From contig JBAZJV010000004.1 in the NCBI GenBank assembly GCA_041651095.1, forward strand, positions 7,735-71,734: a stretch of 64,000 nt of DNA, in the 5' to 3' direction. Source of the DNA: Patescibacteria group bacterium. Its GTDB lineage: Bacteria > Patescibacteriota > Patescibacteriia > Patescibacteriales > UBA12465. The notes under the pieces are model-generated. The model made no database searches. It saw only the letters and a program-made list of their open reading frames with translations, and had not been told where the DNA came from. A program made the position numbers and the translations under genes. This document shows, piece by piece, positions 2,784 to 35,404 of the stretch (position 1 is the stretch's first letter; each line of letters begins with the position of its first letter).

Positions 2784-4082
2784 TTACGAAGACAAAGCTT
2801 TCAGATCCTCTCTGACCGCGGCAGCTAATAATTCCGGGCTGGCGAATTTTTTGACCTCGCGCAATTTACGGCCGACCGTCACCTGCACTTCCTGGCCATA
2901 GATATCTTCATGAAAATCCTGGATCAAGATTTCCAAAGATGGCGGCTCGTTAAAAACATCCTTGAAGCCGAAATGCAGCAAGCCACGATAATTTTCGCCC
3001 TTGACCACGATATCCGCCAGATAAATGCCGTGCGGCATGTCCAGGTCGGTCTTGTCCAGATTGGCCGTCGGGAATCCTAGTTCCCGGCCCCGGCCCTGGC
3101 CGCGGATGACCCGGGCCGTAAAAGCGATCTTCGGCTTATCCAGATAGGAAACCTGGAAGAAGGCCCACAGCAGAACCAAGGCGGCGACGATCTGTACCGG
3201 CGTCAGATAATTGTGATTGAAAACATAGTCCATGATCAAGGCGGAAAATGGCCAGAACAATTCCAGGATGGTGGAAGCGGAAGCGGATACCCGGCGCAAG
3301 CCGAAATAATAGACGAACATGGCCCCGGCGCCGCTCGTGAACAGGATCAAAACGAAGAAACGCCAATGCATGGGCGTAATCTGGCTGAAACGGAAGACAT
3401 CGCTGTTTAATAGGATAAGAACCAACCCCATGACCGCGGTGACACCGAAGCGCAAAGCGGCCACGGCCCTATAGTCCAAGTGGTTGGCGATGCGCTTGCC
3501 GAACACCGTGGAGGAGCCGAAAGCGAAGGCGGCCAGGAAGGAAAACAACGCCGCGTTATGCCACCAATTAATCTCAAAAATATTCAGTCCGGTCTTGGCA
3601 AAAGCGATAAAATAGCTAGCGACGATGGCGATCGCGGTCCAGGCATAGAAACGCTTCGGCAATTTTTCGCCCAAGATAATACGCGCCAATAACAGAGCGA
3701 AAATCGGTTGAAGTTTCTGCAGAATCACGACCGTCGCGAAAGTAGTCTCGCCGTCAAAAGCAGCGAAGAACGCCTTGGTAATCATGATTGTTCCGATAAG
3801 TCCACCAAACAAGCTGATCCAAATAATCGCGCCCCAGCTTTTGCGGCTTAGCGCTTTGATCTTATTCCAATAGATAAAAATAAACGGCGACAAGACTAAG
3901 AATCCAAGGGCATGTTCGACAAACACGACCAAAGGAGCCGGCAGGATATAAAAGCGAGGACGGATGAACAGGCCGTCGATGCTCCACAACAAGGCGGCCA
4001 ACATGATGGCCAAACTACCTAATACCGTATATCTGCTCCGGTTGGCAAATAATTTTTTCATGGTTTTATAATTAATTTCCAC
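2784..4082 (-). CDS. fusion protein: N-terminal 10-TM EamA/DMT-family transporter + C-terminal riboflavin kinase (RFK) domain
   Basis: C-terminal ~125 aa RVIRGQGRGRELGFPTANLD...EILIQDFHEDIYGQEVQV matches RibF C-terminal riboflavin kinase hallmark (GRGR.LGFPTAN); N-terminal 300 aa is a polytopic EamA-like membrane domain. Confidence 0.75.
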   Translation of the reverse strand: MEINYKTMKKLFANRSRYTVLGSLAIMLAALLWSIDGLFIRPRFYILPAPLVVFVEHALGFLVLSPFIFIYWNKIKALSRKSWGAIIWISLFGGLIGTIMITKAFFAAFDGETTFATVVILQKLQPIFALLLARIILGEKLPKRFYAWTAIAIVASYFIAFAKTGLNIFEINWWHNAALFSFLAAFAFGSSTVFGKRIANHLDYRAVAALRFGVTAVMGLVLILLNSDVFRFSQITPMHWRFFVLILFTSGAGAMFVYYFGLRRVSASASTILELFWPFSALIMDYVFNHNYLTPVQIVAALVLLWAFFQVSYLDKPKIAFTARVIRGQGRGRELGFPTANLDKTDLDMPHGIYLADIVVKGENYRGLLHFGFKDVFNEPPSLEILIQDFHEDIYGQEVQVTVGRKLREVKKFASPELLAAAVREDLKALSS

Positions 4083-6885: not shown

Positions 6886-8142
6886 TTATACCTTTTTCAT
6901 CAACAAAATAGCGCTATTTCTATACCGGTCAACCCAATTATCAAGATAGGCGAAATCATGACCGGCTAATTCACGGACGACCTGCTTAACCTGGTATTTC
7001 TTTGACCTAAAGACTTCGATGCCGCCGTAATGCAAGACAATGAAACCGGTTTTTGGTTCATAACTCCATTTGGCCCGGCGATAATCGATCTGGCTGCTTT
7101 TTACTATTTGATTGACGGCGAAATTCAAATAATAAGGGTTAGCGCGGTACTTCTTAAAGGTTCGCGCAATATGATTCCTCAGCTGGAAACCAAGCAACAG
7201 CTTATCTCCCGGCCGGGTATTGCTCTGAAAAACCTTAAAGATTTCTGCTTGGTCACGAGAATTTCCAATCGTGTTCCCGACGCAGATATGAATGCTGTGC
7301 TTGGTCTGACCGAGATCCAGACGGGATCGATCCAAATTCTGAAATATATCGCAAATCAGATTGGCGCTAATATTTTTTCGCGGATATTCGATCTGCTTAG
7401 CTGCCAGTTTGCCGGCAAAAATATCCAGGAAGTCCTGACTGACATCAATGGCATTAAGTTTGACCGGCGACCGCGATTCGATCTGCCAGCGCACCAATTC
7501 CATCTCGGTTTCGGCCGTACCGATACCGTAGTAGACTTGGGTGTGATTGGCAATCTGCGGATAAATGGACAACCGATATTGCTCCAGGATAGCCAACTCG
7601 TTATTCCCGCACTTATAATGTACGGGGTTACAGAAAGCTACCATCAACCAGTCGCGGGGATTACGATACCACTGTTCGCCTTGTAATTCATGGCGACTCA
7701 ATTGGTCATTCAGCCTTTGATTTAATATTTCTTCCTTTTTGCGGCTAGCATAGGCTAGCGGCGCCAAAGCGATGACCGGCTGCGGTTTCAGGTATTCGCC
7801 AACTTTCCGGCTCTTGATGACCAGCCTGGTTTTAACTGGCACGGTTCGCGTGTCGTCAAAGCGATCAAGCCCGGATCTCATTTTTATGGAATCAGGATCA
7901 GAACCTGATGGGAAGGCATATTCCATCATATCCTTGGCTATTATTTTCCCGTGCCGCACCAAATAAGTGCCTAATGGACTGGATTCGATCACTTCACCGT
8001 CGCCCAATATATAGTGAAGATATGGACCGGAATATAATTCGGAATAATTCACCGTATCAATGGAGAATAAGCTGAGCAAGAAAACGAAAAAAACAAATAA
8101 GGCTTTAATGGCCCGTACTGCCTGAGTTTTGAACTTTTTCAT
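6886..8142 (-). CDS. EgtD-family (histidine N-alpha-methyltransferase-like) SAM-dependent methyltransferase with N-terminal signal/membrane anchor and ~130-aa extra N-terminal domain
   Basis: C-terminal half parallels the EgtD family by recall (YYGIGTAETEMELV ~ ELGSGTSEKT; ICVGNTIGN ~ FLGSTIGN; PGDKLLLGFQL ~ PGDSLLLGTDL; YRRAKWSYEPKTGFIVLHY ~ FEHVAKWNSDEERIEMWL); recall-based, needs an HMM check. Confidence 0.5.
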   Translation of the reverse strand: MKKFKTQAVRAIKALFVFFVFLLSLFSIDTVNYSELYSGPYLHYILGDGEVIESSPLGTYLVRHGKIIAKDMMEYAFPSGSDPDSIKMRSGLDRFDDTRTVPVKTRLVIKSRKVGEYLKPQPVIALAPLAYASRKKEEILNQRLNDQLSRHELQGEQWYRNPRDWLMVAFCNPVHYKCGNNELAILEQYRLSIYPQIANHTQVYYGIGTAETEMELVRWQIESRSPVKLNAIDVSQDFLDIFAGKLAAKQIEYPRKNISANLICDIFQNLDRSRLDLGQTKHSIHICVGNTIGNSRDQAEIFKVFQSNTRPGDKLLLGFQLRNHIARTFKKYRANPYYLNFAVNQIVKSSQIDYRRAKWSYEPKTGFIVLHYGGIEVFRSKKYQVKQVVRELAGHDFAYLDNWVDRYRNSAILLMKKV

Positions 8143-13083: not shown

Positions 13084-14955
13084 CTAGTCAACAAAGTTTT
13101 CCGTTTCATCGAATTGGCCGGTAATAGAGCTGTTCCCCGCCGCCCGTTTCAGGATCACCTGCGGTTCACCGCGATAGGTTATATCAGCGTTATCGGCCGC
13201 GGCCGCTTCCAGCCTGTCCTTCACCCAGATCTCAGCGTCGGCAAAATCCCCGGCATCGACTTTCACCTGATCGGCCGCGAAGTTATAGCCGTCAAACTGG
13301 CTGTGGCCCTGCAGGCTGACTTCTAAATTCTGGGCGCTGCCCGCTAAATCGGCATCACTAAAGATATCGAGCGCTAACTTCACGGACTGAGCCGAGAGAT
13401 CGTCGGCCGAGAGGTCGGCCGAGCCGTCCATTTGGATATCCAGTTTGCCGGCCGAGCCGCTTAATCGTAATTCGCTGCCCACGCCGCTCAGGCTGGCGCT
13501 TAAATCCTGACCTAACAATTCCAGCCGGGCGCTCGCGGTTTCACCTAGACTGACATAAAGCGGCTGATCAAAGCCTTGCAGCTCGGCCGAGGAACGATTG
13601 ACGCCGACGAAGGAGTCTAGGCGGGGCATGACGATCTCGCCGCTGATCCGCCGGTCGAAGCAGAAGACGCAGATGCCCCGGTTTTCCCGCGGCCGCTGGC
13701 TTATTTGCAATTGGCCGTCCTCGATCTTGAAAGACAGGCGGCTCAGGTCCTCCGGCCGGCCGGACAGATTGATCGCGAAGGCATCCCCTTTGACCACCCG
13801 GATATCCTCCTGGCCGCTCAAATACAGCTTATTAAAATCCTGGTAGCCAAAACTCTGGCTGATTGTCTGCTGCCGGTTGATCTCTTCCACCCTGGTCTTG
13901 ACCAAAGGCAGAAAGTTAACGGCCGCGACCGTGAAAACAGCGATAGCCGCCATCCAGACGCCGATCAGAATGCCGGAACCGACCAAATTTAAAGAATTTT
14001 TCCGCCGAATAGCGGTCAGGCCCAGAGCGGATAAAAAGATAAGCGGCAGAGCGCAAACCAGATATAAAGAAATCACGCTGACGTAATAATTGGGCTGGCT
14101 GGCGATTTCTGCCAGAGGCAGATCCGAGACCAGATACGGCGAATTGATATTAAAAATCATTAAGGCCGCGGCAATGCTCAGGCCCAGGATCCCGAATAGC
14201 GAGGCGATCAGAAAGACCGTCCCGATCAGGACGCTGATTACCGGCAACAGGAAACTTCCGGACCGCTTCAGGAAGAGAAAAATCGCTTCTATGACCCGGA
14301 CCGGAAAATTCAGCACCCGGCGCAAAGTGCCGTTGCGGCGCAGCTGGCCGATCGCTTCCCGCCCCTCCGCCTCGATCAGCTTGGATTTTTCCTTTACGGC
14401 TTGCTGGATTTCCGCCAGATTGACCGGCTTGCCGCGCATCTCTAATTTTTGGGTGCTGGTGGTCGCTTTCGGCATAGCGATCCAGAAGACGATGTAAGCG
14501 AGGATGCCGAGGCCGTTCGCCAGAGTCAGGATGACGAAAACCAGACGGACAAAGACCGGATCAATGCCGAAATAGGCGGCGATGCCGGAAGCGACGCCGG
14601 CGATGATCACGTCATCCGTATCGCGGTACAAGCGGCGCCGGGCGCCCGACGTTTCGGCCACGGTTCGAGCCGGTTCAGCCGCCTCTTCTTCCGAATCGGT
14701 TATTTCCTCTACCGTCCCCATGACCCTAATGACCTCTTCCACGTCCGCCAGGGTAATGATCTGTTTCGCGTCCTTGAGCTGACGGCTGAATTTTTCCGCG
14801 ATGCTGGATTCTATGTCGGCCATAATTTCCGCTTCTTCTTCCGGCGCGACGTAATGCTGCTTGATGGAATCCAGATAGCCCTGCAAGCGCTGATAAGCCG
14901 CTTCTTCCAGGCTGAAAGCCAGGCCGCCGAGGGTGATGTTGATACTTTTTTGCAT
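13084..14955 (-). CDS. PspC-domain membrane protein with C-terminal DUF4097/DUF2807-like beta-helical (putative adhesin) domain
   Basis: PspC motif RRRLYRDTDDVIIAGVASGIAAYFGIDPVFVRLVFVILTL; repetitive LSG/DG beta-helix C-terminus. Confidence 0.65.
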   Translation of the reverse strand: MQKSINITLGGLAFSLEEAAYQRLQGYLDSIKQHYVAPEEEAEIMADIESSIAEKFSRQLKDAKQIITLADVEEVIRVMGTVEEITDSEEEAAEPARTVAETSGARRRLYRDTDDVIIAGVASGIAAYFGIDPVFVRLVFVILTLANGLGILAYIVFWIAMPKATTSTQKLEMRGKPVNLAEIQQAVKEKSKLIEAEGREAIGQLRRNGTLRRVLNFPVRVIEAIFLFLKRSGSFLLPVISVLIGTVFLIASLFGILGLSIAAALMIFNINSPYLVSDLPLAEIASQPNYYVSVISLYLVCALPLIFLSALGLTAIRRKNSLNLVGSGILIGVWMAAIAVFTVAAVNFLPLVKTRVEEINRQQTISQSFGYQDFNKLYLSGQEDIRVVKGDAFAINLSGRPEDLSRLSFKIEDGQLQISQRPRENRGICVFCFDRRISGEIVMPRLDSFVGVNRSSAELQGFDQPLYVSLGETASARLELLGQDLSASLSGVGSELRLSGSAGKLDIQMDGSADLSADDLSAQSVKLALDIFSDADLAGSAQNLEVSLQGHSQFDGYNFAADQVKVDAGDFADAEIWVKDRLEAAAADNADITYRGEPQVILKRAAGNSSITGQFDETENFVD

Positions 14956-26115: not shown

Positions 26116-27507
26116 TTAAAATTCCGCGTTCTTGGGCGTGCGCGGGAACGGAATCACGTCCCGGATATTGGCCATGCCGGACAAGTACATGATCAGGCGC
26201 TCAAAGCCCAGGCCGAATCCCGCATGCTTGACCGAGCCGTACTGGCACAGGTCCAGATACCAGGCATAGTCTTCTTTGTTCAGCTTGAGTTCGGCCATCC
26301 GTTGTTCAAGGTTCTCCAGGCGCTCTTCCCGCTGGCTGCCGCCGATGATTTCCCCCACGCCGGGGACGAGCAGGTCCATGGCCGCGACCGTTTTTCCGTC
26401 GTCATTGAGGCGCATATAGAAAGCCTTGATCTCTTTGGGGTAATTCGTAACGAAGACCGGTTTCTTGAAGACCTGATCGGTCAGGTAGCGTTCGTGTTCG
26501 GTCTGCAGGTCGATGCCCCACTTGACCGGATAGACGAATTTTTCACCGGATTTTTCCAGTCGCTCGATAGCCTCGGTATAAGTAATACGCCCGAATTCGG
26601 AATTCAGGATATTATCCAGACGATCCTTGATACCCGGATCGATGAACTTATTGAAGAATTCCATTTCTTCCGGCAATTCTTTCAGGACATGACTAATCAA
26701 ATATTTAAGCATCTGCTCCGCCAGGTCCATGTCTTCGCGCAAGCCGGCGAAAGCCATTTCCGGCTCCATCATCCAGAATTCGGAAGCGTGGCGGGTGGTA
26801 TTGGAATTTTCCGCCCGGAAGGTCGGACCGAAGGTATAGACCTTGTTCAGACCCATAGCCAGGGCTTCGGCGTTGAGCTGGCCGCTTACGGTCAGCCCCG
26901 CTTTCTGGCCGAAAAAATCTTCGGCGTAATTTATTTCTCCGGCTGGCGTCAGCGCCGGTTTTTTCAGGTCCAGAGTCGTCACCTGGAACATCTCGCCGGC
27001 ACCTTCGCAGTCGCTGGTGGAAATTATAGGCGTATGGACATAGCTGAAACCGGCCTCATGAAAAAATTGATGGATCGCGAAACTGAGCTCGGAACGCAGG
27101 CGGAAGACCGCGGAAAAAGTATTGCTGCGGCCGCGCAAGTGGGCGATGGTGCGGAGGAATTCGAAACTGTGCTTCTTTTTCTGGAGCGGATAATCGGCTG
27201 GCGCCAGATTGACGATTTCTATAGTTTTGGCCTTGAGCTCGAAAGCCTGGCCGGCGGCCGGCGACTCAACCAGTTTCCCGCTGACCATTATTGACGAGCC
27301 GACGCTGGCTTTTTCCGCTTCGGTGAAGTTCGGCAAATCCGTGCCGAAGACTATCTGCAGGCCTTTGAAAAAAGTGCCGTCATTAATCTCAATAAAGCCG
27401 AAGTCCTTGGCGCTGCGCGCGGTCCTCACCCAGCCGGCGACGCTGATTTCTTTGTTCAAATGTTCAGTTGTGGAACGATATAAAGATTTGATGCTAGTGA
27501 TTGGCAT
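26116..27507 (-). CDS. asnS: asparaginyl-tRNA synthetase
   Basis: class II motifs incl. [37 protein letters not shown]. Confidence 0.9.
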
Positions 27508-27536
27508 AAGGCGTTGCTTAAGTGATAGCGCCGAGC

Positions 27537-29330
27537 TTACTTTTTCTTCCGGACCGGCGCGATATAGAGTTCGTCTAATTGCTTAGGGCTGACTTCGCTC
27601 GGCGAATCGGTCATCAGGTCGCGGCCCTGGCCGTCTTTGGGGAAAGCATAGATATCGCGGATAGAATCCCAGTCATTCAAGACCATGAGGATCCGGTCGA
27701 TGCCCGGGGCATTGCCGCCGTGCGGCGGCGCGCCATAGGAGAAAGCGTTGATCATCGCCCCGAACTTATGGTCTACTTCTTCCTTGGTGTAGCCGGCAAT
27801 AGCGAAAGCTTTATACATGATTTCCGGATCATGGTTACGGATGGCGCCGCTCGACGCTTCAAAACCGTTAATCACCAGGTCATATTGATAGGCCAGAACC
27901 TCCAAGGGAGCCTGCTCCTCTAAGGCTTTCAACCCGCCTTGGGGCATGGAAAAAGGATTATGTCCGAAATCGATGCGGCCTTCTTCTATTTCCGAGTAAT
28001 CGTACATCGGGAAATCTACGATCCAGAGCCAGGCCGCCAGATTATTGTCTTTCAGGTTCAAACGGTTGGCTACTTCGCTTCTAACCACGCCTAAGACCGC
28101 GCAGACCGTGCGCCAGCTGTCGGCGCCGAAAAAGACGATGTCGCCGTCCTGGGCAGCGCAAGCTTTGACAATAGCCTGCAATTTTTCCGGCGTCATAAAT
28201 TTCACGATCGGCGAACTTAGCTCGTTATTCTTCAAGGTCAGATAGGCCAGACCCTTGGCGCCTTTCTGCTTGGCCAGTTCGGTCAGCTCGTCTATTTCCT
28301 TGCGGGTGAATTTCGCGCCGCCGTCTATTTTCAAGGCATGGACAACGCCGTTATTTTTCAGAGCGTCGGTAAAGACCGAGAAGCCGCAGTCTTGCGCTAA
28401 TTCGGAAACATCCTTGATCTCCAGATCAAAGCGCAGATCCGGCTTATCCGTGCCATATTTATCCATGGCGTCGCGCCAGGATAGTTTTAAGAAACGGCCG
28501 TCCGGCGCCAGCTTGACAATCTTCTTCCGGCTGAATTTCTCGGTCAATTCTTTCATGAGCGGTTCCATGACCTGAAAAACGTCTTCCTGTTCCACGAAGC
28601 TCATTTCCATGTCCAGTTGGTAGAACTCGCCATAGTGACGGTCCATGCGCGGATCTTCGTCGCGGAAGCAGGGCGCTATTTGGAAATACTTGTCCACGCC
28701 GCCGACCATGAGCAACTGCTTGAACTGTTGCGGCGCCTGCGGCAAGGCATAGAACTTGCCGGGATACATGCGGGACGGCACCAGGAAGTCGCGCGCGCCT
28801 TCGGGCGAAGAATTAGCCAGGATCGGAGTCTGGACTTCCACGAAATCCAATTTATGGAAGTAGTCGCGGATATAAGCGATGAACTGGTCCTTGACGCGTA
28901 GCATTTCCTGGAGTTTGGGCCGGCGCAGATCAATGAAGCGGTATTTCAGGCGCAAGGCCTCGTTCGCTTCGGCGTTCTTTTCCTCGTTGATTTCAAAGGG
29001 CAGAGTCTTGGCCTGGCCCAGAATCTCAATTTCGGAAGCGATAACTTCTATTTCGCCGGTCGAAGTTTTCGGATTGACCATATCAGCCGGGCGGGCCTTG
29101 ACCTCGCCGCTAACTTTTATCACCCATTCATCATGCAATTTACCGGCCGTAGCGATATCGGCCTGGCTGGTGGTCTCGTCGAACCTGACCTGGGTAAAGC
29201 CGTAGCGGTCGCGCAGGTCCACAAAAATCAGAGCGCCGTGGTTCCGGACACTGTTCACCCAGCCGGCCAAGACGACTTTTTGGCCAACTTTAGATTTATT
29301 TAATTCTCCGCAAGTGTGGGTTCTTAACAT
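27537..29330 (-). CDS. aspS: aspartyl-tRNA synthetase (with GAD insertion domain)
   Basis: class II motifs [24 protein letters not shown], length 597 aa. Confidence 0.9.
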
Positions 29331-29609
29331 AGCTTTGTTAATAAAAAACTAACGAAAATACTCGTTTATTGAACCAATCTGTCTTATTTTGCTGTTAAAA
29401 TTTTAACTGATTTTAAGGATTTAAGCAAGAAAAAAGGGCGGCTACAAGTTAAGATACTATTTCTATTGACATTATTTATAATATATGTTATTATATCCTA
29501 ATGATCTTTAAAATCAGGGAATAAATAGGTTGGTGATTTCAGTTCCCTTACCGACCAAGGTGTCTGAAACCACTAACTTATTTATTTACCAACTAAACCA
29601 GGAAGAGCC

Positions 29610-30156: not shown

Positions 30157-30243
30157 AAAACCGTCGAATGCATTAAGCAAACGACGGTTTTTAAATTTAA
30201 TGCTATTTTTACAAAAACGGCCAGATCGCTCTGGCCGTTTTAC
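30157..30243. terminator. two tandem bidirectional terminator hairpins between convergent genes
   Basis: AAACCGTCG...CGACGGTTT and ACGGCCAG...CTGGCCGT each flanked by A/T runs. Confidence 0.5.
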
Positions 30244-30260: not shown

Positions 30261-33200
30261 TTACTTTTTTAAATGCTTGCCGGCCGCCCTGATAATCAAA
30301 TCCGGACTCAGATTAGAAGAGCCAATCAATTCCCCGTTATCGTCAACGTAATATCCACTATTCGGCGTCCAGGCTCGGTCGTAAGTGCCGCGGTTCTTGG
30401 CATATGATTCTCTCGCTTTTTTGTGGATAATCCGTTCCGTCTTGGCATTAGACCAGCGGACTGGATCGCCCAAGATGAGCATGACATCAGGAGTGCCTAA
30501 AGCGGCGGCATAGTGTCCCAAGCCAGTATCAGGAGTTAACACAACATCGGCCATAGACATTATCGCGTTGACATTCTCCACCGGCTCCTTGACTAAACTA
30601 ACCCGACCGGTATCCTTAGCCAGTTTTTCCACCAGCGGATTATAGCGTTCTTGGCGCTGCTTATTCGGGTCTTCCATGAACAGTACCTTGGACTTGGGGT
30701 GTTCTTTCAAGATGCCCTTGATCGCTAGCGCCCATTTTGCCGGCTCATATTCCTTAGGCATGACGCCGGAGCCGGCCGAAACAACGATAATATTTTCATC
30801 ATCGGCAACCTTATATTTCTTTTTCAATTCAGCGGAGATCTTATCGTGATCTTTGCCCTTCTCCAGATAGTGGTCCATCTTGTTGATATCCGGGAACAGT
30901 TTCTGGCCGAACATGACTTCGAAATTCCGCATAATCCGGGCTGGGATCGGATCGTATTTTTCCGTCAGGCCGCGGCGCTTAGGTATTTCTTCCTTGACCC
31001 AGCTTGACCAGTCAACCGACATCACGTGTGAAGGATCATCCGAATCGTTATCGTCCAGATTGAGCAGCCCATACTGCTCGAACTCTTTATGGGCATTAAT
31101 GATGAATTTTTCTTTATGGTCATTGGCGAAAGCGGCGCGCAGGGGCCGGAAATTCTCCGCCTCATTCTCATTGCGCCGACCTAATTCTATCAGTTCGACT
31201 TTGCCTGGGAACTGGTCGACTAGGCATTGGAACAGTTTCATTCCAGTCTTCGATACCGCCAATTTGATCGGCTTGTCGAATTTATTTTCCTCCAAGTAAC
31301 GCTCAACCGCTAAAACGATCGGGGTAGTCACGACTTCGTCGCCGATCGGGTCGTCCAAGAGTATCACTATTTCTTCCGCCCGTTCAATACCTTTAACAAG
31401 CGGTGACTCTTTATAGAACTCCGGCGGGAACGGCTTGTCGCCGACCTTCGCTTCGCTGAGGAAAATATTATCAATCTGGTTTTGCAGCCGGCCGATCTGC
31501 AAGCCGACATAATCTTCAGCGCTCAAAGGAGCGCCACTATTGCGCTGCTCATTGTAATGTCGGCAATCACCGGCTATTTTAGTTTTGTCTGCTTCGCTCA
31601 ATTCGTCATAATTTACGTAGAATCTTAGCTGATCAAGCACGAAACCATATTTCTTATATTTCGGATCCTGCTTCAGAGTCTCTACCAATTTAAGGAATTT
31701 ATCTCCCTGGTCGCGGTAATCCTGCAATTCCCGATTATCGCTCTTTAATTTGACGCTCGTATCGTAATTACTGTTATCCAGAGTAATAAACAATGGCTTA
31801 CGCTTCTTGCCGGCATCCTGTTCAGGGGCGGCCTGAGTATCGGTGCTGAGAATTTTTTTCAAAGCCACCAAATCGACATTGCTCGGATTGCCGCGATACA
31901 GCTTCAGCTCCTGGCGGTCTTTCTTCAGGCTGCCGCTATAGCCGTAATAATCGCCATAATAGCCGGACGGAAATTCTATCGGCTCGGCCGCTTTCTGCTT
32001 CTCTAACGGCGTCCGCCAGCCGACCGGAATAAACGGCGGCCAGTCGGTATCGCGACCCACGTCCAGCAAAGTCGCCGTGCCTAAGTCGGGCGGCGTATTG
32101 ACGACCTCGCTGGCATCGACGCCTTTCAGGCCTTCGCCCACCGCGGTGGCAAAGACATGGACATTCTCCGCGCCGTCCTTGCCCAGACCGGCGGAGACGG
32201 CCACTTCGGCAAATTTGGCTTTGAGCACGGCATGGCCGTCCTTCTCGCCGAATAATAATTTGCCCAGCTCGCTGCCTCGTTCCACGCTGATCTTGCCGGT
32301 CGTCGGATCGACCGGAATCTCAATTACCTGATGCTGCGTGCCGCTCGATAGCGAGAATAAAAACTTCATCTTCCCTTCCTTGATCAGCTCCGCGGCGTTC
32401 TCGCTCAGCTTGACGCCGTTAACGGTTTCAAACGAACCGTCCGGCGTCATCCGGATGGCCGCCATTTCATAGCTATTAGTCTGCAAATTGATGCCGCTCC
32501 CCTTATCGCCGGCCCAGGTTTCGCGCAGTTCGTTCAAATCCGCGCCGTGCCATTTGCCGTCCGCCCCCTGATACATCGGGGTATCGTTGGCATACCACAG
32601 GCCGCGACGCACTTCCTTGAACATTTCCGGATGCTTATTGACATAGTCTTCCGGCCCGATATGCGTTTCCGTAGTGACGCTATGGCCGGATTCGATCAGA
32701 TACTGGCTATCGCTGACGCCGATATGCTCATTAGCTAAAATCTGCTTAGCTTCCTCGGTCAAGGAACCGTCCGGATTGACCTGCAAATGCTCGGCTAAAA
32801 TTTCCGAACCGCGCACCAGATTGAATGAGCCGTCTGGATTAGGCAGCCAGCTGCAATTGGCCGGCATTTTGATCAAACCGTGCTCTACTGCTATTTCCTG
32901 CAGCTTGCCCGGATTGCTATGGCCGGTCAAAAAATTCTTTAAACTCTCTAAAGCCGTATCGCGGTCGCCGATCGCCCGGTTATTGCCCTTAATCAAGTTT
33001 TCTGCCAAACCTTCCTGCTTGTCACTGAGCAAAGCAAAACCTTCCTGCGCTACTAAACCGATAGTGAGGCCGGCGACGGTGCTCTGAGCCACCTTCTTAA
33101 AAACTTCCTTATTCCTATGCTTATTAAAAGCCTTGTCTTTAACGGCTAAACCGGTATCGGCATCGCCGATCAGATCATTGCGATATAAAGCTGTCAGATC

Positions 33201-34859
33201 TGCCAAGCGCTGCTCCCAGCCTTGATTAAGCCCGGCCGGCAGCTTGCTCAACTGCTGTTTGGCCTGCCACTTGGCCTGCAGCAGGGCCTGCCGTTCGGAT
33301 TCGACATTAGCCAGGCCGGAATAGCTGATCAAATCTATTTTCCTTTCATTGGACAGGGCCAACCGGGCCTCGATTTCCGCCAGATTGTTCAGGGCTTTTT
33401 CCATTTCCTCGGCCGTTTCCGGCGCCTTGGCCAGGCTGGCGGTCAAATCCTCGTGCAAATTAGCGGCGCTCTTTTTCCGGTAGATAAAGCTGGCTTGAGA
33501 ATCTAATTTTTCTTTTTCCTGCTGCAAACTCTTGAGATTCTTGTCTATCTTCTTAAGTTCTTTCTTATCGGTCGTCGTCTGCTTGGCATTTTCCAAGGCG
33601 CCGATCTCGTCAGCCAGGCGGTTCCTGTCCGCCTGGATATTTAAATCCTGGACGGCGGAACGCGCTTCCAGAGTCTGGCGCTCCCGCTTCTGCATCTGGC
33701 TTTCCTTGATGCCGGTATAGAGTCCGGAAACGCCGGCCGCGAGGCCCAAAGTGCCGATGGCGGCGGCTTTGGAGCGCAAGATACGTTGGGATACGAAAGC
33801 GCCGGCCGAATAGGCCAGTCCGACGCTGACAGCCAGCGTGGTCTCATTGACCAGGCTGCCTAATTTGGTCCGGCGCAGTTTCTCGACGGTTTTCTCCGCG
33901 ATATTATAATGGGTTTCCGTCTTGACGCCTTCCTTGGCGCGGCCTAAGACCAGTTCGACGTCGAAATCGAAAGCGGCCAGCTTGGCCTGATGGTCGGCCG
34001 CCTGCTTGATATTATCCTTGATCTCCTTGACCTGTTCGGCAATGGCTAGAAAATTATCGACGTACATCTCGCTCTGCTTGATCGTCGTCTGGTCGCCGCT
34101 TTTTTCAATGGCGGCGAAAATCTGCCGCTTCTCGCCCTCGAAAGCGGCTTGGTCCAATTTGCCGTCGGCGTAATCATTGATGATGCGCTTCAAGTCGGTT
34201 TTTATCTTTTGCGTTTCCGGATTATCAGCCAAGCTTTCTTTCTTCTCGCCCAGATTTTCTTCGACTAATTCCTTGATATCGGAAGTAAAGCGGGACAAGA
34301 TCGCCGTTTCGAAATTCTGCTGCATCGCCGCCTTATCGGCTGCGCTTGATTTCTCTCCGGCGTAGAGATTGCCGGTTTTTAAAATTTCCTGCTTGCTCTT
34401 GACCCGGGCTTGCTCATGCAGATACTGCTCGGCATAATTATATTTCCAAATCCGCTTGATCGCTCCCTTGAAGCCTTTGAGTTCCGCTTTCTCCGCGGTC
34501 ATAGTCTCGGAAGCGGCGCGATGGGCCCGGCTGCGCAGGATCTCAGAGGTATCGACCACGCCGGCCTTAAATACCAGCTTCTTGGTCTGATCCAACTGGT
34601 TCAGGGAATCTTGCTTGGCCGTGTCCAAGCCAACGGCAGCATCACCAATCGCTGCCTCGGCGTCCGGTTGCTGCTTAGCCGGCAAATCCTTGGCTTCCAC
34701 AGCGGGCGGCGTCAATTCCCGGCCTTTGATTGCGGCCGCCGTAGCGTTCAGCTGCTGTTCCACGGCCGCCGACTCGGTTTCGGAAACTGCCTGGTCCGGC
34801 CGTGATTTCTGTTCTTTAAGATTGAAAAATTTTTTTAAACCAGAATAAAATTTATCCAT
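30261..34859 (-). CDS. giant (1532 aa) membrane-anchored coiled-coil protein with PDGS-repeat middle region and C-terminal GT9 (ADP-heptose heptosyltransferase-like) glycosyltransferase domain
   Basis: uninterrupted ORF; TM hairpin aa ~333-383; coiled-coil-like K/E/Q-rich N-half; repeats NPDGSFNLVRGSEILAE / NPDGSLTEEAKQILA / TPDGSFETVNGVKLSENAAELI; C-terminal ~371 aa (nt ~30264-31376) with GT9 motifs IVILLDDPIGDEVVTTPIVLAV and VVLTPDTGLGHYAAALGTPDVMLILGDP (cf. WaaC VVSVDTGLSHLTAALDRPNITVYGPTDP). Confidence 0.8.
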   Translation of the reverse strand: MDKFYSGLKKFFNLKEQKSRPDQAVSETESAAVEQQLNATAAAIKGRELTPPAVEAKDLPAKQQPDAEAAIGDAAVGLDTAKQDSLNQLDQTKKLVFKAGVVDTSEILRSRAHRAASETMTAEKAELKGFKGAIKRIWKYNYAEQYLHEQARVKSKQEILKTGNLYAGEKSSAADKAAMQQNFETAILSRFTSDIKELVEENLGEKKESLADNPETQKIKTDLKRIINDYADGKLDQAAFEGEKRQIFAAIEKSGDQTTIKQSEMYVDNFLAIAEQVKEIKDNIKQAADHQAKLAAFDFDVELVLGRAKEGVKTETHYNIAEKTVEKLRRTKLGSLVNETTLAVSVGLAYSAGAFVSQRILRSKAAAIGTLGLAAGVSGLYTGIKESQMQKRERQTLEARSAVQDLNIQADRNRLADEIGALENAKQTTTDKKELKKIDKNLKSLQQEKEKLDSQASFIYRKKSAANLHEDLTASLAKAPETAEEMEKALNNLAEIEARLALSNERKIDLISYSGLANVESERQALLQAKWQAKQQLSKLPAGLNQGWEQRLADLTALYRNDLIGDADTGLAVKDKAFNKHRNKEVFKKVAQSTVAGLTIGLVAQEGFALLSDKQEGLAENLIKGNNRAIGDRDTALESLKNFLTGHSNPGKLQEIAVEHGLIKMPANCSWLPNPDGSFNLVRGSEILAEHLQVNPDGSLTEEAKQILANEHIGVSDSQYLIESGHSVTTETHIGPEDYVNKHPEMFKEVRRGLWYANDTPMYQGADGKWHGADLNELRETWAGDKGSGINLQTNSYEMAAIRMTPDGSFETVNGVKLSENAAELIKEGKMKFLFSLSSGTQHQVIEIPVDPTTGKISVERGSELGKLLFGEKDGHAVLKAKFAEVAVSAGLGKDGAENVHVFATAVGEGLKGVDASEVVNTPPDLGTATLLDVGRDTDWPPFIPVGWRTPLEKQKAAEPIEFPSGYYGDYYGYSGSLKKDRQELKLYRGNPSNVDLVALKKILSTDTQAAPEQDAGKKRKPLFITLDNSNYDTSVKLKSDNRELQDYRDQGDKFLKLVETLKQDPKYKKYGFVLDQLRFYVNYDELSEADKTKIAGDCRHYNEQRNSGAPLSAEDYVGLQIGRLQNQIDNIFLSEAKVGDKPFPPEFYKESPLVKGIERAEEIVILLDDPIGDEVVTTPIVLAVERYLEENKFDKPIKLAVSKTGMKLFQCLVDQFPGKVELIELGRRNENEAENFRPLRAAFANDHKEKFIINAHKEFEQYGLLNLDDNDSDDPSHVMSVDWSSWVKEEIPKRRGLTEKYDPIPARIMRNFEVMFGQKLFPDINKMDHYLEKGKDHDKISAELKKKYKVADDENIIVVSAGSGVMPKEYEPAKWALAIKGILKEHPKSKVLFMEDPNKQRQERYNPLVEKLAKDTGRVSLVKEPVENVNAIMSMADVVLTPDTGLGHYAAALGTPDVMLILGDPVRWSNAKTERIIHKKARESYAKNRGTYDRAWTPNSGYYVDDNGELIGSSNLSPDLIIRAAGKHLKK

Positions 34860-34870
34860 ATATTTATAAA

Positions 34871-34893
34871 ATCCGGCCTTAAATAAGCCGGAT
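34871..34893 (-). promoter_or_regulatory. stable hairpin (ATCCGGC/GCCGGAT) immediately upstream of the giant gene start: terminator of the upstream small ORF or 5' attenuator
   Basis: minus strand AATCCGGCTTATTTAAGGCCGGATTTTATAAATATATG. Confidence 0.35.
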
Positions 34894-35069
34894 TATTCCT
34901 TACTGCTTCCTAAATCGCTTCTTAACTGCGCCAGCCGGTCCTGGTCGGCTGCTTGCAACAGCGCCGCCAACTTGGCGTCGCGCTTGGCTTCGATAACCGC
35001 CACGCGCCGCGAAAAATCCTGATAGATATCATTGATCAATCTGATTTTGTCCTGATCCGATAAAGGCAT
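34893..35069 (-). CDS. small hypothetical protein (58 aa) MPLSDQDKIRLINDIYQDFSRRVAVIEAKRDAKLAALLQAADQDRLAQLRSDLGSSKE
   Basis: ORF below track cutoff between 35087-35404 gene and the giant gene; helical/charged. Confidence 0.3.
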   Translation of the reverse strand: MPLSDQDKIRLINDIYQDFSRRVAVIEAKRDAKLAALLQAADQDRLAQLRSDLGSSKE

Positions 35070-35086
35070 AATTAATCAAGATTTTT

Positions 35087-35404
35087 TTAACCTAAATAAG
35101 AAGCTCGAAACTCCATCAGCGCCTGGGCGACCAACTGCTCCAGGTCCGGAATGCTGGCCTTGATGAAAGACTGCAGCGCCTCGGCGTCAGGCTGTTCCAT
35201 CAGCCGGTTGAACTCTTCCAATTTATCCGCCGGGATATTGTCGAAGATAGCCGCCTTGATCTTGTCTTCGGCCCGAGCGGCCAGGTCGGCTTTGGCCTGT
35301 TGGAGCGTTTCCGGCTCCAGATTAGCCAGCTTCTTCTCGGCCAATAGGCGATCGACGAACTGCTCGACGGCCGGAGAGAAATTTTGATTGCTCATATTAG
35401 TCAA
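35087..35404 (-). CDS. hypothetical protein (105 aa, helical)
   Basis: ORF only. Confidence 0.45.
   Translation of the reverse strand: MTNMSNQNFSPAVEQFVDRLLAEKKLANLEPETLQQAKADLAARAEDKIKAAIFDNIPADKLEEFNRLMEQPDAEALQSFIKASIPDLEQLVAQALMEFRASYLG

Follow-up and report, generated by a model that had tools for sequence, protein, structure and literature searches.

The heptosyltransferases WaaC and WaaF of the lipopolysaccharide (LPS) core and the Veillonella protein 3tov are family 9 glycosyltransferases (GT9) with a GT-B fold of two Rossmann domains and a DTGxxH motif. The BAHT enzymes, such as TibC and AAH, belong to the same family but glycosylate proteins, not LPS, and the known examples work in the cytoplasm, before export. 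Polymorphic toxins (Rhs, CdiA and LXG-type), as is generally known, combine a long conserved N-terminus with a sharp junction beyond which non-homologous C-terminal enzymes are swapped. Features of both recur in a giant gene of a Patescibacteria group bacterium (UBA12465), located in a stretch of 64,000 nucleotides that we refer to as the window (GenBank assembly GCA_041651095.1, contig JBAZJV010000004.1, forward-strand positions 7,735 to 71,734). The gene encodes a GT9 glycosyltransferase within an undescribed, family-wide modular architecture: its relatives make up a family of giant proteins that extends across the Patescibacteria, and of which it is the local orthologue. In this family a conserved scaffold of ~955 residues is followed by a C-terminal enzyme module that can be exchanged.

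The Patescibacteria, or candidate phyla radiation (CPR), account for a large part of bacterial diversity and are obligate episymbionts with tiny genomes. To our knowledge, they lack LPS, and we know of no role for most of their conserved lineage-specific proteins. An identical public protein (MFA5155339.1, from a 233,933-bp contig) is titled 'MAG: glycosyltransferase family 9 protein [Patescibacteria group bacterium]' by NCBI (MAG, metagenome-assembled genome), a name that conceals three quarters of the protein. The searchable literature yielded nothing on DUF5663 (the family of a small neighbouring gene, see below), on CPR heptosyltransferases, on this fusion or on such giant proteins. An initial annotation, made from the DNA sequence, had described the gene as one uninterrupted open reading frame (ORF) for a membrane-anchored coiled-coil giant with a C-terminal GT9 domain, a fusion of undescribed architecture that might serve as a glycosylating machine at the cell surface. 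The ORF is indeed single and uninterrupted, with 1532 codons on the minus strand (Table 1). The proposal holds for the catalytic domain, whereas the suggested location and role are unsupported. The fusion is not a one-off, being a minority variant of a very large Patescibacteria family.

The C-terminal GT9 module

The Pfam profile PF01075 (Glyco_transf_9) matched residues 1345–1461 with 32.2 bits (E 8.8e-8; gathering score 22). The match covers only positions 94–208 of 247, in the C-terminal half of the profile; the tail of one relative, P0081, reached 55 bits. The AlphaFold model of the module was confident (predicted local distance difference test score, pLDDT, 84.4; predicted template modelling score, pTM, 0.85), and a Foldseek comparison of this model with the PDB returned GT9 enzymes at ranks 1–9 (3tov, the WaaF structure 1psw and WaaC), with E values of 4e-13 to 2e-8 and TM-scores of about 0.62–0.69 per target. 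Because the Pfam match, the confident model and the GT9 fold matches coincide, the assignment of residues ~1126–1532 to a divergent GT9-type GT-B glycosyltransferase, predicted from sequence and model to have its catalytic motifs intact, is solid. The GT9 domain proposed in the initial annotation thus stands. Searches against PDB sequences with the C-terminal domain alone, and with its 13-sequence profile, gave nothing beyond matches to WaaC at E about 1.

The invariant columns of the 13-sequence alignment are G-D (residues 1173–1174), K-E-Y (1369–1371) and T-P-D-T-G-L-G-H-Y (1442–1450), and the candidate catalytic motifs are IGD (D1174), PKEY (K1369) and PDTGLGH (residues 1443–1449, with D1444 and H1449). 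The last of these aligns with the donor-site motif DTGxxH of WaaC (D261–H266); the pairing of VVLTPDTGLGHYAAALGTPDVML with WaaC vvsvDTGLsHltaaldrPnitv, to which the initial annotation had pointed, was reproduced. As in WaaC, the N-terminal G-D motif has a proline six residues on, and in the C-terminal lobe a Lys-x-aromatic motif comes after strand one. Judging by motif spacing, G1173-D1174 may correspond to the N-terminal catalytic Asp of WaaC (D13) and K1369 to its phosphate-binding Lys (K192). PDTGxGH is kept in 20 of the 21 fused GT9 tails.

Despite the common fold and motif, the module is only 13–17% identical to WaaC, WaaF and 3tov, from which it also differs in two added parts: its N-lobe contains an insertion, and a helical extension (EAKVGDKPFxxEFY) precedes it at the N-terminus. 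The module scored 29.2 bits against the NCBIfam WaaC equivalog TIGR02193 (cut-off 185.3) and 14.6 bits against the WaaF equivalog TIGR02195 (cut-off 134.6); it is therefore GT9-like but no orthologue of the LPS heptosyltransferases. Unlike WaaC and WaaF, moreover, it is fused to 1125 residues, in an organism expected to be devoid of LPS. A search with the last 439 residues retrieved the fused relatives together with standalone proteins of ~410 residues that are 31–35% identical. The latter (P0021–P0026) consist of the same module with its helical N-terminal extension and all of the invariant motifs, and the fused GT9 modules form a clade of their own apart from them. The standalone genes, on groundwater Patescibacteria contigs, adjoin NUDIX, Mur ligase and secA-like genes, with neither DUF5663 nor the scaffold nearby. 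The gene upstream of one of them, in locus L002, was considered as a split-off scaffold, but it has no scaffold similarity; from motifs recognised by eye, we take it to be SecA-like.

Could the fusion be an ordinary LPS-core heptosyltransferase that came to be linked with an unrelated ORF when a stop codon was lost or the assembly went wrong? Tail and scaffold are separate in three relatives (L020, L021 and L022), by a frameshift or a single in-frame stop. However, independent assemblies yielded four more full-length relatives with this fusion, and 21 clusters have it (of 159 related tails, 21 belong to the GT9 type); the gene is therefore not an assembly chimera. Also opposed to an ordinary WaaC or WaaF are the equivalog scores, the separate clade with its distant standalone relatives, and the general understanding that Patescibacteria have no LPS. 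Misassembly is effectively excluded.

The scaffold family and its exchangeable tails

A scaffold profile, searched against 1.84 billion representative proteins, matched 1177 clusters (50% identity) at E<=1e-3, of which 683 reached E<=1e-30. The window ORF aligns to profile positions 2–948. The family members among the matches listed are mostly of 1000–2000 residues, and the scaffold hidden Markov model (HMM) finds a single scaffold gene in each locus. Where the genome measures ~1 Mb, a gene of this size is a heavy investment. The scaffold had no match in Pfam, NCBIfam or PHROGs, and a 17-sequence profile of the whole family had no PDB sequence match. A family of more than 1000 clusters is thus covered by none of Pfam, NCBIfam, the PDB and the literature found.

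Alignment with 17 close relatives located the boundary of the scaffold. The first ~958 residues are common to all and the sequences diverge afterwards, the common part ending in every relative at a junction with the consensus PPFIPxxxRxPLE, in which P945, R949, P951 and L952 are invariant. Beyond it, P0002–P0005 carry a GT9 tail and P0007, P0008, P0010, P0011, P0013 and P0017 a Ser/Thr kinase, while the remaining close relatives have no precomputed Pfam domain. On our reading of the sequences, the non-GT9 tails contain a domain that resembles GT-A and has the motifs NDADN (DXD) and GGED, and its assignment as GT2-like rests on a PF13641 match of 28.5 bits (gathering score 27) and on weaker PF13632 and Glyco_transf_7C matches in relatives of that tail. 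A local classification of 159 relatives assigned 85 to the GT2-like type and a further 12 to GT2-like plus kinase (97 with a GT2-like domain in all), 21 to GT9, one to kinase only, 19 to a repeat-containing, non-enzymatic type and four to a fourth type; the rest are singletons or truncated. The GT9 domain is therefore a minority tail and the GT2-like GT-A domain the usual one.

Unusual tails were noted as well. Two were each seen in a single relative: residues 1093–1145 of the protein from a Saccharibacteria locus (L011, 2678–6175) form a J domain (PF00226, with 33 bits), and P0162 has a YkuD domain (see below). Another, of ~300 residues, recurs (P0043, P0064, P0150 and others); it contains the repeat ISQEEYDAMxDDLKMINKxIQ...GIITL...DFKSEYGKKRY once or twice, together with a small C-terminal β domain.

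In the close relatives, the gene order is ribosomal operon-secY-...-map-ruvX-recO-DUF5663-giant-aspS-asnS-DUF5671-scpA-scpB, and since L004 combines this order with a GT9 tail but L005 combines it with a GT2-like plus kinase tail, tails have been exchanged in an orthologous gene. Similarly, the GT2-like-tailed members P0006 and P0007 resemble the window protein in their scaffold (67–69% identical), junction, chromosomal position and DUF5663 partner, whereas their GT-A tail, followed in some by a kinase, is non-homologous to the GT9 tail. GT9 and GT2-like tails are interleaved when scaffold sequences are clustered. GT9 tails are 42–54% identical to the window tail where the attached scaffolds are only 30–36% identical to the window scaffold. 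The G+C content at third codon positions (GC3) of linker plus GT9 module, in both the window gene and L004, is 0.54–0.59 compared with 0.65–0.69 in the scaffold and also lies below that of neighbouring genes; there is no such drop in the GT2-tailed L005. The interleaving, the higher identity of the tails, the retention of PDTGxGH and the GC3 drop point to repeated replacement of the module followed by purifying selection on a tail that is predicted, from sequence, to be an active enzyme. Thus GT-A and GT-B enzymes, which are not homologous, have been exchanged repeatedly at one junction, and a glycosyltransferase is the usual tail.

In a few relatives the GT9 tail is an ORF of its own. L020 and L021 have a frameshift at GGAAAAGG (around 8001–8020), in the first helix of the module, and the protein that results from this split (P0020) is found on 8 contigs; in L022 (7976–8001), one in-frame TAA in the linker separates the two parts. 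These splits could be real, reflect recoding or be sequencing errors.

The scaffold itself is composed of five regions and the junction motif (Table 1). Its N-terminal third is K/E/Q-rich by composition, as had been stated. The coiled-coil description held in part: with a crude heptad test, heptad-like periodicity was found only at residues 267–314 and 420–471. The two segments of the supposed transmembrane hairpin are present (helices H1 and H2, residues 339–360 and 366–384) and a third helix (H3, residues 590–611) had been missed; exactly three hydrophobic helices are found in all 165 members. All three are only marginally hydrophobic, so the hairpin, and membrane spanning in general, is unproven. 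The region that follows H3 (residues 612–958) is the best conserved of the family and, as modelled mostly in β-structure (pLDDT 78, pTM 0.50), is a novel β-rich domain. The PDGS-type motifs of the initial annotation lie here and number four (residues 675, 696, 806 and 852); each opens a β-hairpin or β-alpha unit in the model, and their glycines G677, G698, G808 and G855 are invariant in the 17 relatives.

Table 1. Features of the giant gene and its surroundings in the window (GC3, G+C content at third codon positions; sORF, small open reading frame)
Feature	Position	Strand	Remarks
Giant gene	30261..34859	-	1532 residues plus stop; ORF list and identical NCBI protein MFA5155339.1
N-terminal hydrophilic K/E/Q-rich region	33864..34859	-	residues 1-332; conserved from about residue 85; invariant columns from A116
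Hydrophobic helices H1 and H2	33708..33845	-	residues 339-360 and 366-384; Gly/Ala/Ser-rich; invariant NETT motif before them
Charged helical region between H2 and H3	33093..33707	-	residues 385-589; heptad-like at 420-471; K/R-rich flanks
Hydrophobic helix H3	33027..33092	-	residues 590-611; Kyte-Doolittle 1.36
β-rich conserved domain	31986..33026	-	residues 612-958; PDGS-type motifs at 675-870 (window 32250-32837)
Junction motif PPFIPVGWRTPLE	32001..32039	-	residues 941-953; scaffold end, tails diverge beyond
Linker	31485..31985	-	residues 959-1125; Tyr-rich, then K/D-rich; GC3 0.54 versus 0.65-0.69 in scaffold
GT9-type GT-B glycosyltransferase module (predicted)	30264..31484	-	residues 1126-1532; PF01075, AlphaFold, Foldseek, invariant columns
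DUF5663 gene	35087..35404	-	105 residues; PF18908, 33.9 bits; conserved upstream partner
sORF MPLSDQDKIRLINDIYQDFSRRVAVIEAKRDAKLAALLQAADQDRLAQLRSDLGSSKE	34893..35069	-	58 residues; between DUF5663 and giant gene; closest relatives only
Terminator-like hairpin	34870..34894	-	overlaps sORF stop codon; kept in L004 and L005
175-residue gene, MFA5155338.1	29610..30137	+	signal-peptide-like N-terminus
Hairpin, 12-bp stem, A-run and T-run flanks	30214..30241		between the convergent 175-residue gene and giant gene

Location and mode of action

We favour, with a probability of about 0.45, the view that the protein is a nucleotide-sugar-dependent transferase kept on the cytoplasmic side and tethered and targeted by its scaffold. 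A transferase is preferred because two unrelated glycosyltransferase folds substitute for each other, preserving the chemistry. The cytoplasmic side is preferred because most tail types need cytoplasmic cofactors (the kinase, glycosyltransferase and J domains of the relatives normally require ATP, nucleotide sugars or DnaK), because there is no signal peptide and because the helices fall below the threshold for insertion. For the same reasons, the labels 'membrane-anchored' and 'surface' were not sustained. That there is no signal peptide follows from the lack of any hydrophobic segment ahead of H1 in 161 of 161 relatives whose N-terminus is complete. The helices were scored by Kyte-Doolittle hydropathy (1.17, 1.38 and 1.36 for H1, H2 and H3; family medians 1.25, 1.38 and 1.54) and by apparent insertion energies of 19-mers, on a Hessa-type scale with approximate values and no position weighting. 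The latter were +6.2, +3.5 and +5.7, with family medians of 3.7–5.9, and 0 of 165 members had values <= +1; by comparison, SecY, TerC and DUF5671 helices from the same window gave mostly -3.7 to about +2 and a soluble AspS segment +6.0. The centre of H3 contains an invariant Gln605 and a near-invariant Glu606, and in the model H3 lies within one long helix (residues 573–611).

Mechanistically, the giant gene would be co-transcribed or coupled with the small DUF5663 gene, and its product would reside on the cytoplasmic side, where the hydrophobic helices would hold it at the membrane or envelope. The β-rich domain of the scaffold could then position an acceptor (a precursor, lipid-linked or of the envelope, or else a protein), to which the tail would move a sugar from a nucleotide sugar. 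Replacement of a GT-A by a GT-B tail would keep glycosyl transfer, though the donor or linkage may change. DUF5663 might be an adaptor, a chaperone or a substrate. If the tail does act on the envelope, these proteins would constitute a CPR-specific glycosylation pathway.

Several observations weigh against a cytoplasmic transferase. If the N-terminus is inside and all three helices span the membrane, the C-terminal half would lie outside, and K/R counts around H3 (6.8 before and 2.0 after, across the family) fit an in-to-out helix. The β-rich domain resembles extracellular Ig/FN3-type folds, although only weakly and below significance. One relative, P0162, ends in a YkuD L,D-transpeptidase domain (residues 1301–1427; PF03734, 34 bits), normally an extracytoplasmic enzyme. 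Catalysis cannot be universal in the family, as ~12% of relatives have the non-enzymatic repeat tail. Finally, no gmhA-, hldE- or gmhB-type or sugar-nucleotide genes were present among the scanned genes of the 64-kb window, which were housekeeping only.

Some of these same observations would suit the main rival, a platform for host-directed effectors, in which the N-terminus remains in the symbiont, the helices and β-rich domain span or leave the envelope, and the tail, possibly released at PPFIPxxxRxPLE, acts in or on a host that supplies nucleotide sugars (ADP-heptose, if Gram-negative), ATP and DnaK. The odd number of helices together with the missing signal peptide, the positive-inside bias at H3, the β-rich domain, the YkuD variant and the lower GC3 of the tail all agree with such an arrangement, as does the sharp conserved junction beyond which tails are swapped repeatedly. 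The repertoire of GT-A, GT-B, Ser/Thr kinase, J and YkuD domains resembles, from general knowledge, that of secreted effectors. The lifestyle would also fit; cultivated Patescibacteria are described as being all obligate episymbionts (10.1101/2024.11.25.624915). We nevertheless regard the platform as unlikely. The helices are too weakly hydrophobic for a transmembrane call, the protein shows neither a known secretion signal nor a known route of delivery, and no relatives were found in the viral contigs scanned or in PHROGs. The parallel with polymorphic toxins is also incomplete. The giant family has no recognisable secretion domain and is encoded by a single-copy gene among housekeeping genes; no immunity-like gene lies downstream, where aspS follows directly in L004 and L005 and a convergent gene in the window. 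Its tails are of few types, with the GT2-like one dominant, and they are more conserved than the scaffold and have intact catalytic motifs, a pattern of purifying selection and not of arms-race diversification. If the tail did act on the host, the family would represent a new type of host-interaction device.

More doubtful again is the extension of the platform to the whole phylum, whereby DUF5663-linked giants would form a new kind of Patescibacteria-specific machine. Its conserved scaffold, in which the novel β-rich domain would be combined with pore- or translocation-like Gly/Ala-rich helices, would present interchangeable cytoplasm-type enzymes (GT-A, GT-B, Ser/Thr kinase, J domain and L,D-transpeptidase) or deliver them to the host, with the GT9 enzyme using a host nucleotide sugar such as ADP-heptose.

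The initial annotation had suggested instead a machine anchored at the surface, outside the cytoplasm, with itself or further surface proteins as the targets of glycosylation. The three-helix topology, which would place the C-terminal half outside, and the Tyr/Ser-rich linker are compatible with this idea, and BAHT-type GT9 enzymes are generally known to glycosylate adhesins. But GT-A and GT-B enzymes need nucleotide sugars, which by general knowledge are unavailable outside the cell, and relatives with kinase or J-domain tails would make no sense there. TibC-type structures were absent from the top 50 fold matches and from the PDB sequence matches, and there is no autotransporter substrate gene near the giant gene, which lies between the 175-residue gene (followed by aspS and asnS) and the sORF (followed by DUF5663 and recO). 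The proposal is without direct support and appears very improbable. The cytoplasmic transferase therefore remains our preferred reading, since it accords with the cofactors of most tail types, the lack of a signal peptide and the sub-threshold helices.

DUF5663 and the surrounding genes

Wherever upstream DNA was available among the 13 genome loci and three further metagenome loci sampled, the giant gene has the DUF5663 gene directly upstream and in the same orientation, including Saccharibacteria, Uhrbacteria and Parcubacteria MAGs. It is the sole constant neighbour across loci and often abuts the giant ORF. In PHROGs neither the giant protein nor DUF5663 had a match, and a scan of viral contigs was without relatives. 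The order of aspS, giant gene and recO given initially is correct, but the giant gene is not directly flanked by either: the DUF5663 gene and the sORF intervene on the recO side and the 175-residue gene on the aspS side.

Limited information on DUF5663 is available from Southlakia epibionticum. In the supplementary tables of Wang et al. 2023 (PMC10633639), SEML1_0161, a hypothetical protein of 767 residues, is followed by two DUF5663 genes, SEML1_0162 and SEML1_0163. The transposon sequencing classes of SEML1_0161 and SEML1_0162 are GD/ES/ES and those of SEML1_0163 NE/GD/GD, and SEML1_0163 has structural matches to the trigger-factor C-terminal domain and LTXXQ-type folds (PMC10633639). In the same tables, an orthologue of the giant protein was not located via DUF5663, J domain or glycosyltransferase Pfam identifiers or flanking genes. 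These data hint that DUF5663 proteins are chaperone-like and important; we take ES to denote essential and GD growth defect. As relatives of the giant gene are present in Saccharibacteria (L011, L016–L019), it offers an experimental target in cultivable members of that group. A further arrangement was noted in L004 (5750–9774), where a protein of 1085 residues is encoded between two DUF5663 genes. With the S. epibionticum case, this raises the possibility that DUF5663 partners large Patescibacteria proteins in general. The 1085-residue protein was considered as a scaffold paralogue, but no relationship was detectable (hhalign probability 0.2, no scaffold-HMM match).

In the window and its closest relatives, the sORF separates DUF5663 from the giant gene. 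In a four-locus alignment, counterparts of 59–61 residues with codon-like substitutions are found in L004, L005 and L010, and in L004 and L005 they are missing from the gene calls of the collection. The gap in numbering from MFA5155339 to MFA5155341 suggests that the Prokaryotic Genome Annotation Pipeline (PGAP) did call the sORF. More distant relatives have no space for it, since there the DUF5663 and giant genes adjoin. The hairpin that had been placed immediately 5' of the start codon was recovered by RNA folding (-14.3 kcal/mol, z -2.9). On its 3' side, TAAATATATG, which includes the ATG of the giant gene, is invariant in the four loci. No obvious Shine-Dalgarno sequence precedes the giant gene (34860–34894), and a leaderless transcript might have its -10 box in the TATAAAT immediately ahead of the ATG.

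The 175-residue gene had been described as divergent from the giant gene; the two are in fact convergent, and the hairpin between them is likely a bidirectional intrinsic terminator. The encoded protein had no match in Pfam, NCBIfam or PHROGs. The GC3 of the gene (0.51) is the lowest of the region, and a promoter-like site with an extended -10 match of 11/12 lies upstream (29466–29494). Since L004 and L005, which are syntenic, lack the gene, it is not part of the unit, and it looks like a recent local insertion.

Several further observations were made in the relatives and elsewhere in the window. L009, L010 and L013 come from MAGs titled 'uncultured Gammaproteobacteria bacterium' and contain a giant gene of the Patescibacteria type. 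In L009 and L010 the synteny is that of the close relatives (map-ruvX-recO-DUF5663-giant and giant-aspS-asnS-DUF5671), and the three bins are probably mislabelled. The window carries asnS and aspS in tandem (26116–29330, minus strand); at the aspS position of L004 (14864–16168), the product has only 434 residues and is without the GAD insertion domain found here and in L005. An ORF of 432 residues (2784–4082, minus strand) joins an EamA transporter (PF00892) to a C-terminal riboflavin kinase (PF01687), an unusual fusion. Lastly, a protein of 623 residues (13084–14955, minus strand) combines a PspC domain and a PspC-type transmembrane region with a DUF2807 'adhesin head GIN' domain.

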